NCBI RefSeq assembly: GCF_964355755.1
Contig: NC_092679.1
Coordinates: 13,313,432 to 13,377,431 of the forward strand
Length of the DNA: 64,000 nt
Reading direction: 5' to 3'
Source: Antedon mediterranea
Lineage: Eukaryota > Animalia > Echinodermata
Below are positions 24,571 through 44,519 of this stretch, piece by piece (position 1 is the stretch's first letter; each line of letters opens with the position of its first letter). Position numbers and translations under genes: made by a program. The notes below the pieces were generated by a model. The model did not search any database, was not told the origin of the DNA, and saw only the letters and a list, made by a program, of their open reading frames with translations.

Positions 24571-24571
24571 A

Positions 24572-25530
24572 TATAATACTATACAGATATTGACTGCTTA
24601 GAGGTTAAATATAAGATTTGACATCCCCGAGGGAATGATATTAAGTTCGAGGGAATATATATTTCCCGAAGCGCCAGCTGAGGGAAATATATATTCCCCT
24701 CGAACTTAATATCATTCCCGAGGGGATGTCAAATCTTATATTTAACCGATATAAAAGGCAATATCTGTTATATTATATAGCCAAGAACAAGTCTGCTGGG
24801 TTGGGTGAAGCTAGGCTAGGCCTCCTATAGTATTTGTATTGTATTTAAACAAGCCTGCCTAGACACCTTACTGTACCTTGCGAAGAATAATATACAGATA
24901 ATTACTAATTAATGATTCCTTGGCAACAAAATATTCACTTAGGCCTAGGTCGTTTAAACTAACAGAAGAATTTCCATCAATAAGCCTATTAAAAATAATA
25001 ATATTATAATCAGGTAGGCCGAATAAACAATTCGTCTTCTTCTCGATCTTCGAGGAGCTGAATCACCGGATGTTCAGCGCGTACTAGTTACTAGGTTACT
25101 ACCGTGAGTATTGACCAATCACAAACGGTGTTTCATCACATTTAGGGTGAACTTATAACAAATGAGGGCGCTATGTATGCATAGTTTAAATAGTTTAGAA
25201 GATTAATTTCTTCAAGCAACTTCCGTGGCGCAACGGTTGAAGCGTTGTCTTGCGATGGAGTGACAATTCCACCCGAGTTCAAGATCGAGTTGATGACTTT
25301 TGTTTATTTATCGGCAACGCGAGTGTTGGCACACGAAAATTACACAGTCAATATCATCGTACTCGAGAATCTATATGTTTAATGACAGGAGACACGATAA
25401 TTACGCGAAAATTACACAGTCAATATCATCGTTCTCGAGAATATATATGATTTACGATCCTCGCAGCGGTAGTCATGTGATGCAGTTTCAACCAATCACG
25501 TTAGCGTATTTACATAGGCTATGTAATATT
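24572..25530. mobile_element. Non-autonomous element with terminal ~200-bp palindrome (Crypton-like)
   Basis: Near-perfect ~64-bp arms (24603-24667 / 24682-24747) around a GAAGCGCCAGCTGA loop; TATTATATAGCC (24771) is inverted to GGCTATGTAATA (25517); no TSD seen. Confidence 0.55.
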
Positions 25531-25596: not shown

Positions 25597-28500
25597 CAGG
25601 GTTCGTACACCTGTGAGCTAGTAAAATTCCAGGACATTTCAAGGACATTCAATGTCAACATTTTAAAATTTCAAGGACATTATTATACCTAAATATTAAG
25701 TTCAACAGATTAATAAAAAAAAAATGAATTCGTAGTTACGATGTTTTTCAGAAATTCAAGTACTAACTGTAGCCACTAAAAAAACATACAGTACTGAAAA
25801 CATAGGCGTGGGAAATCGAGTAAAATGACACGTAACGGTAGTAAAGCGTAAAGAGTTGTAACAACTCCCTGGTAAAGCCTTTGTGGAACCGCGCCAGACT
25901 TCCGCGCCTATCGAGGGTAGTCACGGCGTGTATTGAACAAAGGCTGATGTTTCCATAGTCACTGCACTGTCGACGATATTTGGTAATTTGATACTACTAT
26001 AGGATGACGTTCTACAATTCGTTCGGAATTCGGAGTTTAAATGCCGTTTCTGTATATCGTATGTTTTTTTTAGAAGGTATAAATAAAAGAAATCAAACCA
26101 TATTCTAATTCACTCTGAACTTTATTCAAAACGATCTTTACGATTTTTACATTGTTTATTTTTTACAACTTAGCAATTTCTGCTAATTTAATCTACACAA
26201 TAGCCTAGCTATTTTTGATTTCCTCTAATTTATGTCTAATGTCTTCCTCTAGTTGAGCTAATTGCTCTTTTTTTTCAGAAGCGGTTCTACGCAAGCTATT
26301 AGCTTTGGCAATGAGGGTAAGACTACCTTTACTTTCAGCTTGATCGGAAAACTTTGCAGACGATTTTTCTAAACCCATAATATCAGCAATACATCTTTTT
26401 TTGGCTTTCTTTAAGTTATCTAACTCATCGATCGTCGATTTTCTCTTAATAGCCTTTGAAGATTCTGCCGCTTTACGTTTTTCATTATCAAGATGGAGAT
26501 TATAGCATTGCCTAGCCCCACTCACAGAAGTAATTAATTGGGGCGTTATCTTTACAGACAAAACACCACCAACTGAAGCTATGTGACCGCATACAACGCG
26601 CTTCGAAACATATGTACTCTCTGACATATTGACAGCCGCTACCTCCTTGTTTACACTAAAACCTCTCTCAACAGTCGCCTGGCCATGGGAAAGCATTAGA
26701 ATCAATTTTACTACCCCCCAGAATGCGTGATACTTAGTGGTTTTGCTAAGGCGGTCATAGTAAAATTCGTCAATTCTACATTTAGGATCGTATTCAGTGA
26801 AATCTGATAAATTATTTAACACAACAAAATCATAGAATTCGTTTGCCTGATTAACAATTTCATCACACATGTCATGGTTGATTTTTTGGTTGTCTGCTAA
26901 TATTTTTAATACAGCCTTTAGTCTACCAACATTAAGAGATCGCGCATTACCACTTAAACAAAAATTTCTTGGATCGAGAAATTTCGCTTTTTGAACGATT
27001 CTGAAACCAAGTGGGCATTTAGATAGCACTTTCTTAACACTTGCACTCATTTTTAAACCTGAGTTCTTGTAACTCGGACACCTTCTTTTTCTTGATCAAC
27101 TCCTTTATATGCTCTGAAGCTAATATTCCACAGTCTACTTTGTTAGCAAGTAAATGGTTTTTCGTTTCATCTATATTAAAGTTAGTGAAACTTTGGCCAT
27201 TCACGAGCCCGGAAAGGACGTCTGGTTTAATGACCAATCTCAATAGCCCTCTCAAACATGCCACTAGATCTTTCTCAAGAAACGGTATCATTGGTTGATC
27301 TGTTTGATATTTTTTAAGAAACGTTTCCATTTGTGTGGCCACCATCACAAAAAAGTGCATTCTGGGCACCGTAAATAAGTCTACTGAAGCAGCCTTCAGA
27401 GTGTCATACGACTTTGTTTTTGGGTCATTTATTTTCTTTTCGGTCACCTGCTTGATGTACGTTTTAAGGTGCGGAAAAACACTGAGAAACCGCTTCGCAA
27501 CTGCAGCATTCTCCACCCATCTGTGTTTACAAAACTTAAGGCCAAACACATGTGTGCCAGTAGCGTTCTCAAAATCTTCCCGACGAGCAGGGGTGTCTTT
27601 GAACAGTATTTGTAAACTAGACAGTATGTCGTAGACCTTCCAATCAATTGACTGCACACCACTTTGAAACCCATTGTGCATTACATGAAGGCCACACGAC
27701 CCAATGTTGAGAACTGATGTATTGTAATTCGTCTTTATATCGGCAGAGAGAAGTTTATAAAACTTCCAATTGACGTTTGGACCATCCATACCGATTTGAA
27801 GTAATTTTGCGAGATTTAGTTTGTCTGCACATATCTTAAAATCGGTGACGACTTTCTCAGCAGTAGCATGACCCATGAATGTACTATCAAAGAATCTAGT
27901 TTCCACGTGGTTGTTAGCCCAAAATCGGACATGGATATCCATTTGCTTTAGTTGTGTACCTTTGTTTAGACTTTCATCAAATAGTAGAACGTAATCTGAC
28001 TCATCCGTAACACGTTTCAGAAGTAATGACCTAAAATGAACAAAACTTAGACTAAAAACATTTGTTTTTCATACTCACCAGGCTATTACTCAATACAGAA
28101 ATGCCTATTACAATTATTTATTTAATCTAAATTGTAGGCCTATATCAATCGATATCAAACAAAACTTACCTAAAATATGGCGCTAAATAATTAACAACAT
28201 AAGCAGACTTTTTTTCACCACAACTAAATTTTGCAGCTATTCCACTATCTGGAAACATCGCCTGGAATACTTCATTTATTTCATCCATCGACTTGTTCGA
28301 ATAGTGCCGGTTAGTCATGAATAAGGCCCACAATATTTCTGCTTTACGAATCTCCTCACTACTACTGAAATACTGCATCGTCGCCGGGCCACTTGGGTTC
28401 GTACGTTTCGGTATACTATTATCAACACTAGTTCCTGGTATGTCTTGTTGTTCAATAATACTGGTGATGGTACTATTAGATTTACTGGTGGATGTTGTTG

Positions 28501-29425
28501 GGTTGGACTTACTAAAAAATTGATTAACTTCTTGCGTCGTATTGTTAAACCTCAACTCCATTTGTTGTTTATGCTTTTTTCCGTTTTGATGAGATATTAA
28601 CGCCGACCGTCCCATGTTGGAGATATCTAATGTTTTTCTACATAGTTTACACTTTGCCTCCGTTTTTATTGACGCACGGTTAATCCACGGGGAAAATTTG
28701 CTATCAAAAAGCCAGGACTCTTGAAAAAAGCATGTACGCGGCATGTTGGATAGATTTCCACTGACGAGAAACGCACGATAAAAAACTCATCGGCAGCCAT
28801 ATAGAGACCGCTAATATACGCGCTTGCGGTGTGAGAGAGCCTCGCTGAGAGAGGTCACTATACTCGCATTCTATTTATAGCTTATCAGAGGCTATAAATA
28901 GAATGCGAGTATAGTCACTAATTAAAGTGTAATGCTAAAATGCTATGCATGTTTACAATATTACATTCGTTAAATTAATTTTTAAACAAAATCGGAACAC
29001 AAAAAGGGCCAAGTATTTATTTCAATAGTAATAGCTATTATGCAATAATGTACTGTGGGGGAACAAAAGAATAGTTGGGCAAAGTTTTTTCAAGGTGATT
29101 GTCATCTGAACATCACTGGCCAGTGGCGTTCTGCAGTCAACAACCAACCTGATAAGAAAGCCTATTTCATGTACGAGCATTTATCGGCGGCGGAAAAGTC
29201 GGCACGTACAAACGTTGTTATCTTCCATGTACTTTCATACTTAATACTTTTATTGTTCAGTGTTTTCAAAACTTTATTAAAAAGAATTCATATAACTTTA
29301 TTGTATTTTAACAATTTTCAGGACATTCAAGGACAAATGCCAATTTCAAGGACTTTCCAGTACTTGAAAAAAGAGATTTATTTTTCCATGACTTTCAAGG
29401 AATTTAAGGACGCGTACGAACCCTG
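25597..29425 (-). mobile_element. hAT-superfamily transposon, near full length, 6-bp TSD
   Basis: TIR CAGGGTTCGTAC; TATTTT on both flanks; subterminal TTCAAGGAC repeats; encodes a transposase. Confidence 0.92.
26205..28744 (-). pseudogene. hAT transposase (exons 28744-28170 and 28030-26205) with one frameshift near 27045
   Basis: BED-like finger CKLC...HQNGKKH; catalytic FDES, MDGPNVN, SCGLH and ERGFS; in-phase gtaagt/ttag intron; frame change at ECK|..VKK. Confidence 0.88.
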
Positions 29426-35350: not shown

Positions 35351-35844
35351 TACTTGTTCCGAAAGCGACATTTGACAAACTCGCAATCCTGTTTATCTTG
35401 AAAAAAAATGAGTTAGGCCTAGGTCGTCAAGATAATAATCAAAGTCAAATCTCAAAATGTTCAAATTGGTCCGATCGAGCTGAAACTTGGAGAAAACAAT
35501 CTTGAGGACAGGGTGAGTATAAATCCGATATCAAGGAGAACACCATAAAAGGTCATGCGATGTACAGATAAAGGTAACATTTCAAAATTGCTCCGATTGA
35601 GCTGAAACTCTTGATCAATAGTATAATTCATGGAGTGTTGAAAGTGTAGGGTCTATTGAATATAAGTATCTCTAGTTCTTTTTCTTTATTTATATTTTCT
35701 ACATGGCATGGTAGGCTAGTTCATTAACATAGAATATATCATCCTTTGACTTTACATTTACATGAAAACAAATGTATGCGATTCCACTGTTACTTATTAT
35801 TTGTGTTTCTCTCTGCAGTGTGGCCGCCTTATCATCGAAAAACC

Positions 35845-37953
35845 ATGGCACAGTTAGAGATTGAGCTGCGTGAATTTCCATGCCATTTCATTTGGAAGCT
35901 TGAACAAAAATCTATAAAGCAATTTCGATCATTGATGGATTCGATTAATGACTATATCAACGAGTGTCCTGCTATGAAAATTGAGAGTTTACTGTTCAAA
36001 TGTTATATTTTCTATTCAGATTTTAAAGGAAATATAGACAAAAATAAAACTGATGCAATAACGTGCATTAATGAAGTGCGTAGAATTTTGCAAGATGATT
36101 TAAGTGAACAACCTTTTAAAGATGGATACTTGGCAATAGCCCTTGCTATCGAAGCTTGGCTCAACCGTCACAACAGAACAAAACTGGCCTCCAATATCAC
36201 AGAACTGCGAAGACTTGACTCAAAATATGAAATCGACTCGAGTGAGCGTAATAAGTTTACAGCAAGTATATGTTCAACAAAAGGATTTGCCCTGTCACGT
36301 GTAGGTATGATTCGATATCCTGATAGTATTAAAGAGCTTAAGAAAGCAGTAGACTTGTGCCCAGAGGTTGTCGATTGGCAGTTTTGCCTTGGTAAAATGA
36401 TATGGAGAATCGGTAAAGCATCTTCTAGGCGACATGTAACAAATAAGGACATTTTAGAAGCCGATCGCATTTTTCATAAGGTTGTAAGTGAGGATCGAAA
36501 TAATAGCTACGCACTTGCCATAATGGGAGAAATAAAGCGAAGGAGGGGTGCAATTGAGGATGCAGAAACCCTATTAAAGCGCGCTCTCGGAGATCCCATG
36601 CAAACCAACACAAAAGTTCTTGGTGAGGTGGCACAGTGTTACCGAAGAATGAAAAAGCATTCCAAATCATTGGAAGTTTTACACGTCGCTGTTAAACGAA
36701 AACCAACTTCTTTCATATTTCACCAACTCCATTGTGTGTACAGAGATATGCGCCAACAACAACCACCCGAAGATTATCTTCAAAAGGCAATTGATATGAA
36801 TCCATCTAATATGGGTGCTCAGTGTGATCGCGCTAAACAATTTTTTTCGAGAAATGAGTATGACAAAGGACGAGCATACTATGAATGGATACTAGATAAT
36901 AACCAAAATGACCCTGAAATAACAATTGAAACCACTTACATGTATGGAATGTCTCTAGGTAACATTCAACATTTTGAAGATTCAGTTGAGAAATTTGTAA
37001 TGGTTGTAGATAAAGCTCTTGAACTAAAATTGGACGATGATCCACCTCTTTTCCCTCATGAAATTAAATGGATGGTAGATGTAGCTGCCGAGCGAGTCAG
37101 AACATTTTATAAACGTAACCTAAATGAAAAGGAATCTCTTTTAAAGTTGGCAGAGTTAGAGATAAAACTTGGCAATTCAAAAGAAGCCTGTGAACACTAT
37201 AGACATCTTTTGATAATACTAACACAAGATAATGAAGATACGAGTGATCTTGAATGGAAATGTCTTGAATACTTAGCCGAAATAAGCACTAAACATAGGA
37301 AGATGGATGACGTCGATACCATCGTGAATAAAATGGAAGAGCTGAATCTTTCGAATTCAAAACCTGAAATACTGGATAAGTGCAAGGAAGCACTAGCGCT
37401 TGAGAGAGGCAGGGTTGCTTTAGCTGATGGTAGAAACAGTGATGCTCATAAACTGCTTATTGAATCGGTAGAATTTGGTAATATAACAGGAGCAAAAATT
37501 CTTCTTGGTGAAGTCAAAGAGATGGACAGAGGAAACAGAATCTTCTACATAAGTTGTGCCCACATTGATATTTGTACTGATCGAAGTCAAGATAACAACA
37601 ATGAATTAAGAGCTGATCTTGAGTCAGTGCTTTCAGATGATACTTCAACAGTAGGAATTGCTTTGAAAGACTTACGAGACACACAATATAGAATGGAGCG
37701 TAATATTCTGCAAAAAAGTTCACAAGTTGCAACATTAACGAAAGACGTAATTCACAAATGCCGAACTATTCTTAATGAGACAATGGTGACATTTAAAAAT
37801 CGCCACTATTCAAACAAAAAGACATCTTGTGACTACCAGAACCTATATGATTGTCCTTCAGAGGATGTAGAAGCCAACCTAAAATAAAAAATTGAGAATA
37901 ATTGGCCCAACTTCGACAACCAATTTCCAGATTTATTTAGTTTCCTAGTTTCT
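35845..37953 (+). CDS. IFIT-like TPR protein, main coding exon (in-frame TAA at 37885-37887)
   Basis: ctctgcag acceptor ending 35818, Kozak-like accATGg; LREFPCHFIWKL (IFIT CHFTW motif); TPR segments GFALSRVG..Y and AQCYRR..KSLEVL..A.K.KPTS.IFHQ; frame continues past TAA to a gtaagt donor at 37954. Confidence 0.85.
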
Positions 37954-38156
37954 GTAAGTAAAAATGTTAAACATTATTTTAGGCTATAGTACAATATAAC
38001 CGACAATACATCGGCAATACATAATTTTTCTTTTTTATTACGTACAAGACTCGACAGACGCACATTTGTAATCAATAACAATTACTGTATACGGATAAAA
38101 AGCCTGTACAATGTAATATCCAAATATTATTTTATGAAGTTATTATTTTTTTACAG

Positions 38157-38381
38157 ATACAACCAGCTTCAAATCCCAACGCCAATAATTGGATGTTCGC
38201 TTTGATTGTCATGGATAACAAACGTAAACATGGAACACAATTTGGCGATGAACTAAATGTAAAGGTTTATTCTGATACGTTAGGTAATATGTCAAAACAG
38301 GAGTTTACTACTCTATATGTGGCAAGAGAAGCGTGTGACAAGATTCTAGATATATTGGAGAACTTTTATAAATATTTGTAA
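38157..38381 (+). CDS. IFIT-like gene terminal exon, putative HEPN catalytic segment
   Basis: ttttacag acceptor, phase 0; IQPASNPNANNWMFALIVMDNKRKH...ENFYKYL*. Confidence 0.75.
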   Translation: MQPASNPNANNWMFALIVMDNKRKHGTQFGDELNVKVYSDTLGNMSKQEFTTLYVAREACDKILDILENFYKYL

Positions 38382-41105: not shown

Positions 41106-42369
41106 GTAAGTATCCTACTGTATGAATTTGATATTTATTTCATTTCATCACATATAAAAATAGAGATGAGTACCATTGTCATGGTAAAAGTTGAGTAGAA
41201 ATGAAACCGGGACAACCATAACAAGAAAAAAAGCTTTACAAATAATGGTGCTTTAAAAAGAAATCAGTAATAATATGATTTTTTGTAATAATGTAAAATA
41301 GCAAACTGTATTATTTATGTTGTACAATATCTGTAGCATGTAACTAATAATAATTTATAAGGATAAAATTTAAATATTTTTAATTAATAAGAGTTAGAGT
41401 TCCAGAAGAGATAAATTAGAAATAATTAATTTGTTATCACCTTATTTGGTTGTACAATGGACATCATTGTCTGCGGATTATTATAAAGGCAGTAATTTTA
41501 CTCTTAAAAGAAGCGAGACCAGTTAGTTTGTTTGCGATTTTATTTGCAATTGGACTACAGTATTCTGATTGGTTCTTCATCAATTGTTTTTACCTGGTAT
41601 GAACCTAACCCTCTCGGGTCATTCCATCTCAGTTCACCCAAAAAAAATGGAATTTTAAACCCTACCTCTTCCAATTTTGATGAAATTTGGTATATGGGTG
41701 ATTCATAGCAATTAAAGCCAAAATTTCCAATTTTAACTTTATCGGACCAACGGTTTTTGAGATATCGCAATTTAAATTTTCGTTTTTTACGCAAAAAAAG
41801 GCGCGGCCGCCACGTTTCAAAGAGCTGTATCTCGGGAACTATAGGTTCGATTTTAAAAACAAAGGTATTTTTGTAAAGGGGAGACCATAAGGAACCTAAA
41901 TATACTAATTGTGTGTGTTTTATGTTAATTTTAAGTTGAATAAAACTTTGACATATATTTTGACCTTGAAATTGACCCCGTGGAACACGCCCGATTTGTT
42001 GGTGACTATCACGAAAAATGTAGCCCTACGTGTCAACTACAACATATAAAAAAATTGGAGGGGTTTTTTTGTTTGTTTCCATGAAATTACAATTTGAAGT
42101 TGACATACCTCTTCCTTTTAGTGTATTTTTGGTGTTGTTATACTTTATACACAGTGTGAACACTAACTGTTAAGGTGTCTTATTGTTACGCTTTCTCATC
42201 AGGCCCACTTAAACAGTAGATATATTTTGATATGAGAAATACTGGGTAACTCACATACTTTTCAAATCAATTTTGACACATAGTTTAGTGTCCTTACTAT
42301 GTTATTATGCACATTAACATATGCATAATAAGTGATTGCAGAGAACATACAACAGTTAACTGTATAGGC

Positions 42370-43578: not shown

Positions 43579-44519
43579 AGGCCAGACATAGACAATTGTA
43601 ACATTATAATGATATTTAGTTTGTAAATAAAATTATTTTTGGAATACATCAAATTGACATTGAAGTAATGCATGGACAGACACCAAAAATACACTAAAAG
43701 GAAGAGGTATGTCAACTTCAAATTGTAATTTCATGGAAACAAAGAAAAAAACCCCTCCAATTTTTTTATATGTTGTAGTTGACACGTAGGGCTACATTTT
43801 TCGTGATGGTCATCAACAAATCGGGCGTGTTCCACGGGGTCAATTTCAAGGTCAAAATATATGTCAAAGTTTTATTCAACTTAAAATTAACATAAAACAC
43901 ACACAATTAGTATATTTAGATTCCTTATTGTCTCCCCTTTACAAAAATGCCTTTGTTTTTAAAATCGAACCTATAGTTCCCGAGATACAGCTCTTTGAAA
44001 CGTGGCGGACGCGCCCTTTTTTGCGTAAAAACCGAAAATTTAAATTGCTATATCTCGAAAACCGTTGGTACGATAAAGTTAAAATTTGAAATTTTCGCTT
44101 TAATTGCTATGAATCACCCATATACCAAATTTCATCAAAATTGGAAGAGGTAGGGTTTAACTCATTGGGTGATCTGAGATGGAATGACCCTCTCATTTAT
44201 CTCAATACTAATAAAATAATATACCGGCGGTAATACTATTACTAAGAAAATGAACGCCATGGCTAGAGACACAGCAGCTTCTGACTGCTAAGTGTGTAGA
44301 TGGTATTTCTAGACATTAAAATAATAACTAACAAACAACAAAAAGTATTGTGCAATGAATAAAACACGCAATCCACAATTTACAGCACTAGACTGTGTAC
44401 TAATAAATAAAAAATGTTTATACTGTATAACTGTACACTCTAAATTGAATAAAAATGTTGTTGAAAAGATGTAAAAAGATGTATATGAAATGTTTTAATT
44501 ATCATTATACTGCATATAA

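Follow-up and report, generated by a model that had tools for sequence, protein, structure and literature searches.

An IFIT-related gene with a predicted HEPN-like C-terminal domain in Antedon mediterranea

Gene structure and a stop allele at the locus

The window analyzed here is a 64,000-nucleotide stretch of Antedon mediterranea contig NC_092679.1, which carries a gene joining a tetratricopeptide repeat (TPR) region related to the IFIT proteins to a C-terminal domain with a predicted HEPN-like fold (Table 1). The frame starts at the ATG at 35845 and its 2109-nt first coding exon is followed by an intron with the ends GTAAGT...TTACAG. Eight public runs were compared at the locus as contigs, and the exact 203-nt skip that joins 37953 to 38157 was found in one contig each of run X5 (organism A, second sample, kind guessed to be RNA) and run X9 (organism B), which belong to two different studies. 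None of the runs was recorded as RNA, and X5 and X9 were taken as transcript-like solely from the missing intron. The junction is not a chance one because these contigs skip exactly 203 nt and a 780-aa homolog aligns with the spliced product end to end, across the joint. The phase 0 splice and the frame of about 777 codons with one TAA were as read in the original prediction, and the motifs it quoted were all present, including IHKCRTILN at residue 636, SIQP at 703, WMFAL at 715 and DNKRKH at 723. The database products for this locus were truncated only (680 and 703 aa). Six of seven truncated database homologs lost similarity exactly at the window's intron site, which suggests that the intron is conserved among homologs and makes gene callers miss the domain. 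The X5 contig runs through 35819, so an upstream acceptor there had no support.

The single internal TAA, codon 681 of the 777, resulted from base 37886, which was T (TTA, Leu) in X5, X6, X8 and X9, whereas X1, X2 and X4 had A there. The latter three are one sample that may be the source of the window, and X10 had no coverage of this base. With three runs agreeing on TAA and the others reading Leu, both readthrough and an assembly error were ruled out; the TAA is an allele, and the earlier assumption that it is read through was not borne out. Contigs cannot tell whether the TAA sample is heterozygous. As a general rule, a stop well upstream of the last exon junction leads to message decay. Given the position of the TAA relative to that junction (Table 1), decay is likely for the stop allele, and the window haplotype is likely null.

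Table 1. Coordinates of the gene and of its parts in the window
Feature	Position	Strand	Remarks
Coding exon A, codons 1-703	35845..37953	+	X5 contig spans exon A and continues directly into exon B
IFIT-related TPR region, residues about 7-473	35863..37263	+	PDB match IFIT5, family profile
Linker of ~124 residues from IFIT-like part to HEPN-like domain, likely helical	37264..37635	+	Occurs in full-length homologs
HEPN-like domain, first part, residues 598-703, predicted helices 1-2 and insert	37636..37953	+	
R640, predicted helix 2, conserved	37762-37764	+	
Premature TAA, codon 681, stop allele in this sample, 66 nt short of last exon junction	37885..37887	+	
Intron, 203 nt, phase 0, GT-AG, inside HEPN-like domain	37954..38156	+	Joints in X5, X9
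Coding exon B, codons 704-777 and stop: predicted helix 3, motif, beta-hairpin, helix 4	38157..38381	+	
D-N-K-R-K-H, residues 723-728, predicted active-site motif	38214..38231	+	

The IFIT-related region and the C-terminal domain

Among PDB entries, IFIT5 matched the window protein best (residues 7-302, E 2.9e-11). Of the natural proteins, IFIT1 and IFIT5 scored highest with the family profile (E about 1e-44, OGT 1e-31), which covered IFIT5 141-474, corresponding to window residues 143-473. A Glandiceps homolog aligned with IFIT5 16-472 (E 8.4e-20). Sequence homology spans the IFIT-length TPR fold, in agreement with the IFIT-like N-terminal part recognized earlier from its motifs. IFIT5 positions were mapped onto 21 homologs through one HMMER alignment, in which the equivalents of H19 and W22 of the N-terminal H-x-x-W were kept in 17/17 homologs, R186 was R or K in 20/20 and K150 was R or K in 14/17, while the equivalents of Y156 (15/17), Q288 (17/20), H287 (12/20) and R260 (12/21) were kept to varying degrees. 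The window protein itself keeps the K150, Y156, R186, R260, F284, H287 and Q288 equivalents. Residues K150, R186, R253, Y250, Q288 and R260 of IFIT5 are reported to be important for binding (PMC9677429; PMC numbers here and below refer to excerpts of the papers). On this mapping, a basic RNA pocket in the IFIT part is plausible, with a specificity that the mapping does not fix. IFITs are defined as TPR-only proteins with no catalytic domain, and because of its ~300-aa extension with a predicted HEPN domain the window protein is classed as IFIT-related rather than as an IFIT.

The domain of homolog P0005 was modeled from a 40-sequence alignment as a four-helix bundle with a pLDDT of 95.6 (H4-25, H28-57, insert 58-118, H120-132, hairpin, H160-179). 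The model shows two alpha hairpins, an insert separating helix 2 from helix 3, the arrangement by which the all-alpha HEPN domains are defined (PMC3710099). Nine HEPN chains topped the list of structural matches and the nearest solved folds were HEPN with no TPRs, the best matches being PDB 8xdj, 7ae2, 5yep, 6tug and 9dun at 4-10% identity. On this modeling the tail very probably has a HEPN fold, as had been predicted in preference to further TPRs. A Foldseek search with the same model gave no match at E <= 0.001 and returned a HEPN protein and Csm6 at E 1.7-1.9 only; a first fold from 5 sequences was weak (pLDDT 59.7) and its Foldseek search was empty. No match below E 0.05 was obtained in PDB sequence searches with the domain profiles, and none of the HEPN models of Pfam, NCBIfam and PADLOC reached threshold. 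The lack of a curated HEPN match favors a new family and is not evidence against the fold. HEPN-named clusters in the Atlas lay at 0.81-0.83, a lead only.

The window carries D-N-K-R-K-H in place of the R-x4-6-H of canonical HEPN nucleases, and this motif occupies the alignment columns of the R-N-x-x-x-H of six homologs. Among the 33 homologs covering the motif, N was present in 29, K in 25 and H in 30, so that the conservation expected of N-x-x-K-H was observed, and two homologs were without the motif. All 30 histidine-bearing homologs had a basic residue: six carried the canonical R-N-x-x-x-H, at the end of helix 3, and the remaining 24 had K at H-1. At the upstream E-x3-[KR] element a helix-2 Arg was found in 31/38 rows, often as E-x-R, and the window reads H-K-C-R.

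Homologs in animals and bacteria

When 1.84 billion proteins were searched with a profile of the last 182 residues, 40 reached E <= 0.001, of which P0044 (repetitive) and P0040 (poorly aligned) were left out of later alignments. Twenty matches were looked up; eleven were named and came from crinoids, the brittle star Amphiura and the hemichordates Glandiceps and Ptychodera, and nine had no name. TPR models (Pfam) were found in 20/37 scanned matches. The nearest relatives were crinoid, namely the 780-aa Anneissia japonica protein (47% identity over the whole length) and a partial Antedon protein named IFIT5-like. The C-terminal region also occurred in two more Anneissia proteins, Anneissia alone having seven loci, and the gene is multi-copy with several copies per genome. 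No paralog lies elsewhere within the 64-kb window. Judging by short matches from other contigs of X2, X4, X5 and X9 at 37527-37785 and 35878-35917, these genomes contain at least one paralog. P0038, P0039, P0041, P0045 and P0046 had the domain with canonical R-N-x-x-x-H, in some of them behind TPR-like regions.

Several homologs are already called IFIT-like by NCBI, so the novelty lies in the HEPN domain and the architecture. Full-text literature searches, with subscription journals largely outside their coverage, turned up no title or abstract concerning an IFIT-HEPN fusion and no paper combining IFIT with Ambulacraria. The IFIT-HEPN architecture is real, conserved in echinoderms and hemichordates, and apparently undescribed, the last as the original prediction had supposed.

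The domain profile also detected stand-alone bacterial proteins in 2/401 and 1/401 sampled genomes, and a second round with a profile of these three proteins brought two further loci from the first sample and none from the other. N-x-x-K-H was present in 5/5 stand-alone proteins within the family pattern L-R-S-x-L-D-Y...Y-F-P...Q-P...W-L...N-x-x-K-H, so that the prokaryotic pattern cited in the original prediction (R..L[ND], P.L...L.SIQP, W...L...NxxKH) is real. Profile-profile comparison of the animal and bacterial families gave a probability of 97.1% (E 7.3e-11), although the bacterial rows had been found with the same profile and the comparison is not independent. None of the five had a Pfam match, and neither of the two tested had a PADLOC match. 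Pfam annotation of the neighbors of the five loci included an IS110 transposase, a TIR protein with a DUF4258-HTH pair nearby, HicA-HicB, DUF4258 with an RHS repeat, and PemK with IS1595; these neighborhoods fit conflict islands, with n=5 and no background control. A 169-aa orphan without a Pfam match (L038:877-1386) lies directly 5' of one bacterial homolog and is followed by HicA-HicB. Searches with the domain by tblastn found nothing in plasmids and only E 4 in phages, the bacterial homolog had no match in plasmids, and a pattern scan of prokaryote genomes with a bacterial domain returned none. The tree of the C-terminal domain (32 rows) has 10/29 branches open and is unrooted, so no claim is made on whether transfer went from bacteria to animals or the other way.

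The same domain stands at the end of four long bacterial proteins (P0036, P0043, P0033 and P0061) that lie among many orphan genes. P0036 (1541 aa; L001:8001-12626) has purC and mutY in its surroundings on a bacterial contig, and one neighbor gives a sub-threshold match to a Dot/Icm effector model. These long proteins are possibly host-directed RNases of intracellular bacteria.

Other features of the window included a repeat insertion directly 5' of the gene in organism A (35373-35740), a segment that the contigs of organism B skip and on which many repeat contigs align. In a test for the interferon-stimulated response elements through which interferon or IRF induces IFIT genes, 0/16 exact GAAANNGAAA matches fell between 29868 and 43080, the gene's transcription start not being located. 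Three consecutive minus-strand ORFs (206, 344 and 296 aa) at 26205-28786, the first with a weak BED zinc-finger match (E 0.026), resemble a broken hAT-type transposase; no terminal repeats were evident there. An inverted repeat pair of about 520 nt and 95% identity (41616-42135 / 43680-44190), tandem repeats (about 1700-2610) and a hairpin (24571-24778) were also observed.

Proposed function and comparison with known systems

We tentatively propose, short of thinking it probable, that the intact 777-aa protein senses non-self RNA 5' ends through its IFIT-related TPR region and cuts RNA with the fused, predicted HEPN RNase. The IFIT pocket would bind the non-self 5' end and RNA binding would bring two HEPN domains together, dimerization on RNA acting as the switch. 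A composite N/K/H site would then cut RNA, with His728 and Asn724 as putative catalytic residues and Lys727 or helix-2 Arg640 replacing the missing arginine. An antiviral role would follow if the bound RNA were destroyed or translation shut down. That the tail is an active nuclease is probable, while activation by RNA ends is held with the same reserve as the whole. Several points qualify the proposal: sensing, dimerization, cleavage and the antiviral role are what we infer rather than observe; the stop allele ends the protein at residue 680, ahead of D-N-K-R-K-H; the canonical HEPN arginine is absent from the animal proteins; and several triphosphate-pocket residues of IFIT5 differ in the window protein, where the E33, T37, Q41, Y250, R253, Y254 and K257 equivalents are changed, all but the last also not being kept across homologs. 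Of the HEPN RNase foreseen in the original prediction, the modeled fold and the conserved motif stand, with the arginine missing and this haplotype truncated; of the sensor-effector coupling, the IFIT homology, fold model and motif stand, and sensing and cleavage remain conjectural.

An active HEPN RNase might instead have a TPR region that senses a protein or other RNA feature, or that delivers cellular RNA such as tRNA, in a stress response or RNA quality control. The changed and variable R253, Y250, Q41 and T37 equivalents, the spliced contigs from runs with no known challenge and the bacterial homologs that join the domain to unrelated long regions agree with this, whereas the kept K150, R186, Q288 and H287 equivalents, homology over the whole IFIT length, and lineage expansions with a null allele, which would suit an immune gene, speak against it; we consider it unlikely. 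Somewhat less likely still is a HEPN-fold tail without nuclease activity that serves as an RNA-binding or dimerization module, translation being inhibited by RNA sequestering as in vertebrate IFITs. Such a module would account for animal members without the canonical arginine and for homologs lacking the motif, and non-catalytic HEPN domains have been described (PMC3710099). The conservation of N, H and the basic residue in animals and of N-x-x-K-H in bacteria argues against this reading, however, and "inactive" is reserved in the same excerpts for domains without conserved polar residues.

Chance likeness of an unrelated four-helix bundle to HEPN is very improbable given the HEPN chains that top the structural list and the six homologs with canonical R-N-x-x-x-H at the end of helix 3. 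Least probable of all is that the locus is decaying into a pseudogene in this lineage. All three runs of the sample to which the window may belong show the TAA, and 28 amino-acid-changing versus 17 silent codon differences were counted among 46 listed organism B variants, a filtered subset; but another organism A sample and organism B have the Leu codon and the spliced contig, and no coding insertion or deletion was among the rows listed.

An IFIT-HEPN fusion present in two invertebrate phyla would place the IFIT origin at least at the base of the deuterostomes. If the proposed sensor-nuclease is correct, invertebrates would also possess a nuclease that senses RNA directly and needs no second messenger, and animal immunity would be tied to a bacterial HEPN family, so far undescribed, in whose site lysine has taken the place of arginine. 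It is conceivable, but we think unlikely, that in the deuterostome ancestor IFIT combined RNA sensor and nuclease in a single protein, built on a HEPN domain of the bacterial conflict type. Echinoderms and hemichordates would then have kept and multiplied it, and vertebrate IFITs would be its sensor half, the nuclease having been lost.

The window protein resembles vertebrate IFIT1 and IFIT5 in homology over the whole IFIT length, in the invariant H-x-x-W and in the K150, R186 and Q288 equivalents, and its TPR region lies on one large exon as in vertebrate IFITs (PMC3688568). It differs in an extension of ~300 residues with a predicted enzyme at its end, IFITs having no catalytic activity (PMC13197388), and in the changed R253, Y250 and Q41. 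The excerpts of PMC3688568 restrict IFITs to jawed vertebrates and reject acorn-worm candidates, in contrast to the echinoderm and hemichordate family reported here. Zebrafish IFIT5A (XP_701096.3) has 773 aa with a non-conserved extension at 509-773, a length similar to that of the IFIT-HEPN proteins (PMC3688568).

The predicted domain is like the HEPN toxins of HEPN-MNT pairs, Csm6 and Las1, its best structural matches, in helix order and motif position, but with 4-10% identity, N-x-x-K-H in place of R-x4-6-H and no antitoxin, CARF or kinase partner. As in RNase L and Ire1, whose RNase is the HEPN-type KEN domain (PMC3710099), a repeat sensor would here drive an RNase that acts as a dimer. 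There is no ankyrin or kinase domain, the proposed model makes a second messenger unnecessary, and the KEN domain was absent among the 50 structural matches listed. HEPN is joined to TPR or NLR sensors in the animal DZIP3/TTC3-type and NACHT-HEPN_DZIP3 proteins (PMC3710099, PMC9334734, PMC13012124), which belong to a different HEPN family, the window domain having no Pfam match to DZIP3-type HEPN. In the excerpts, animal HEPN fusions are with TPR, NACHT and ankyrin and none with IFIT (PMC3710099), and only NLR-HEPN_DZIP3 is mentioned in PMC9334734 and PMC13012124. The bacterial N-x-x-K-H family is like the animal domain in the non-independent profile-profile comparison given above, and unlike the IFIT-HEPN proteins its members are stand-alone proteins of 230-350 aa with a longer insert after the motif.
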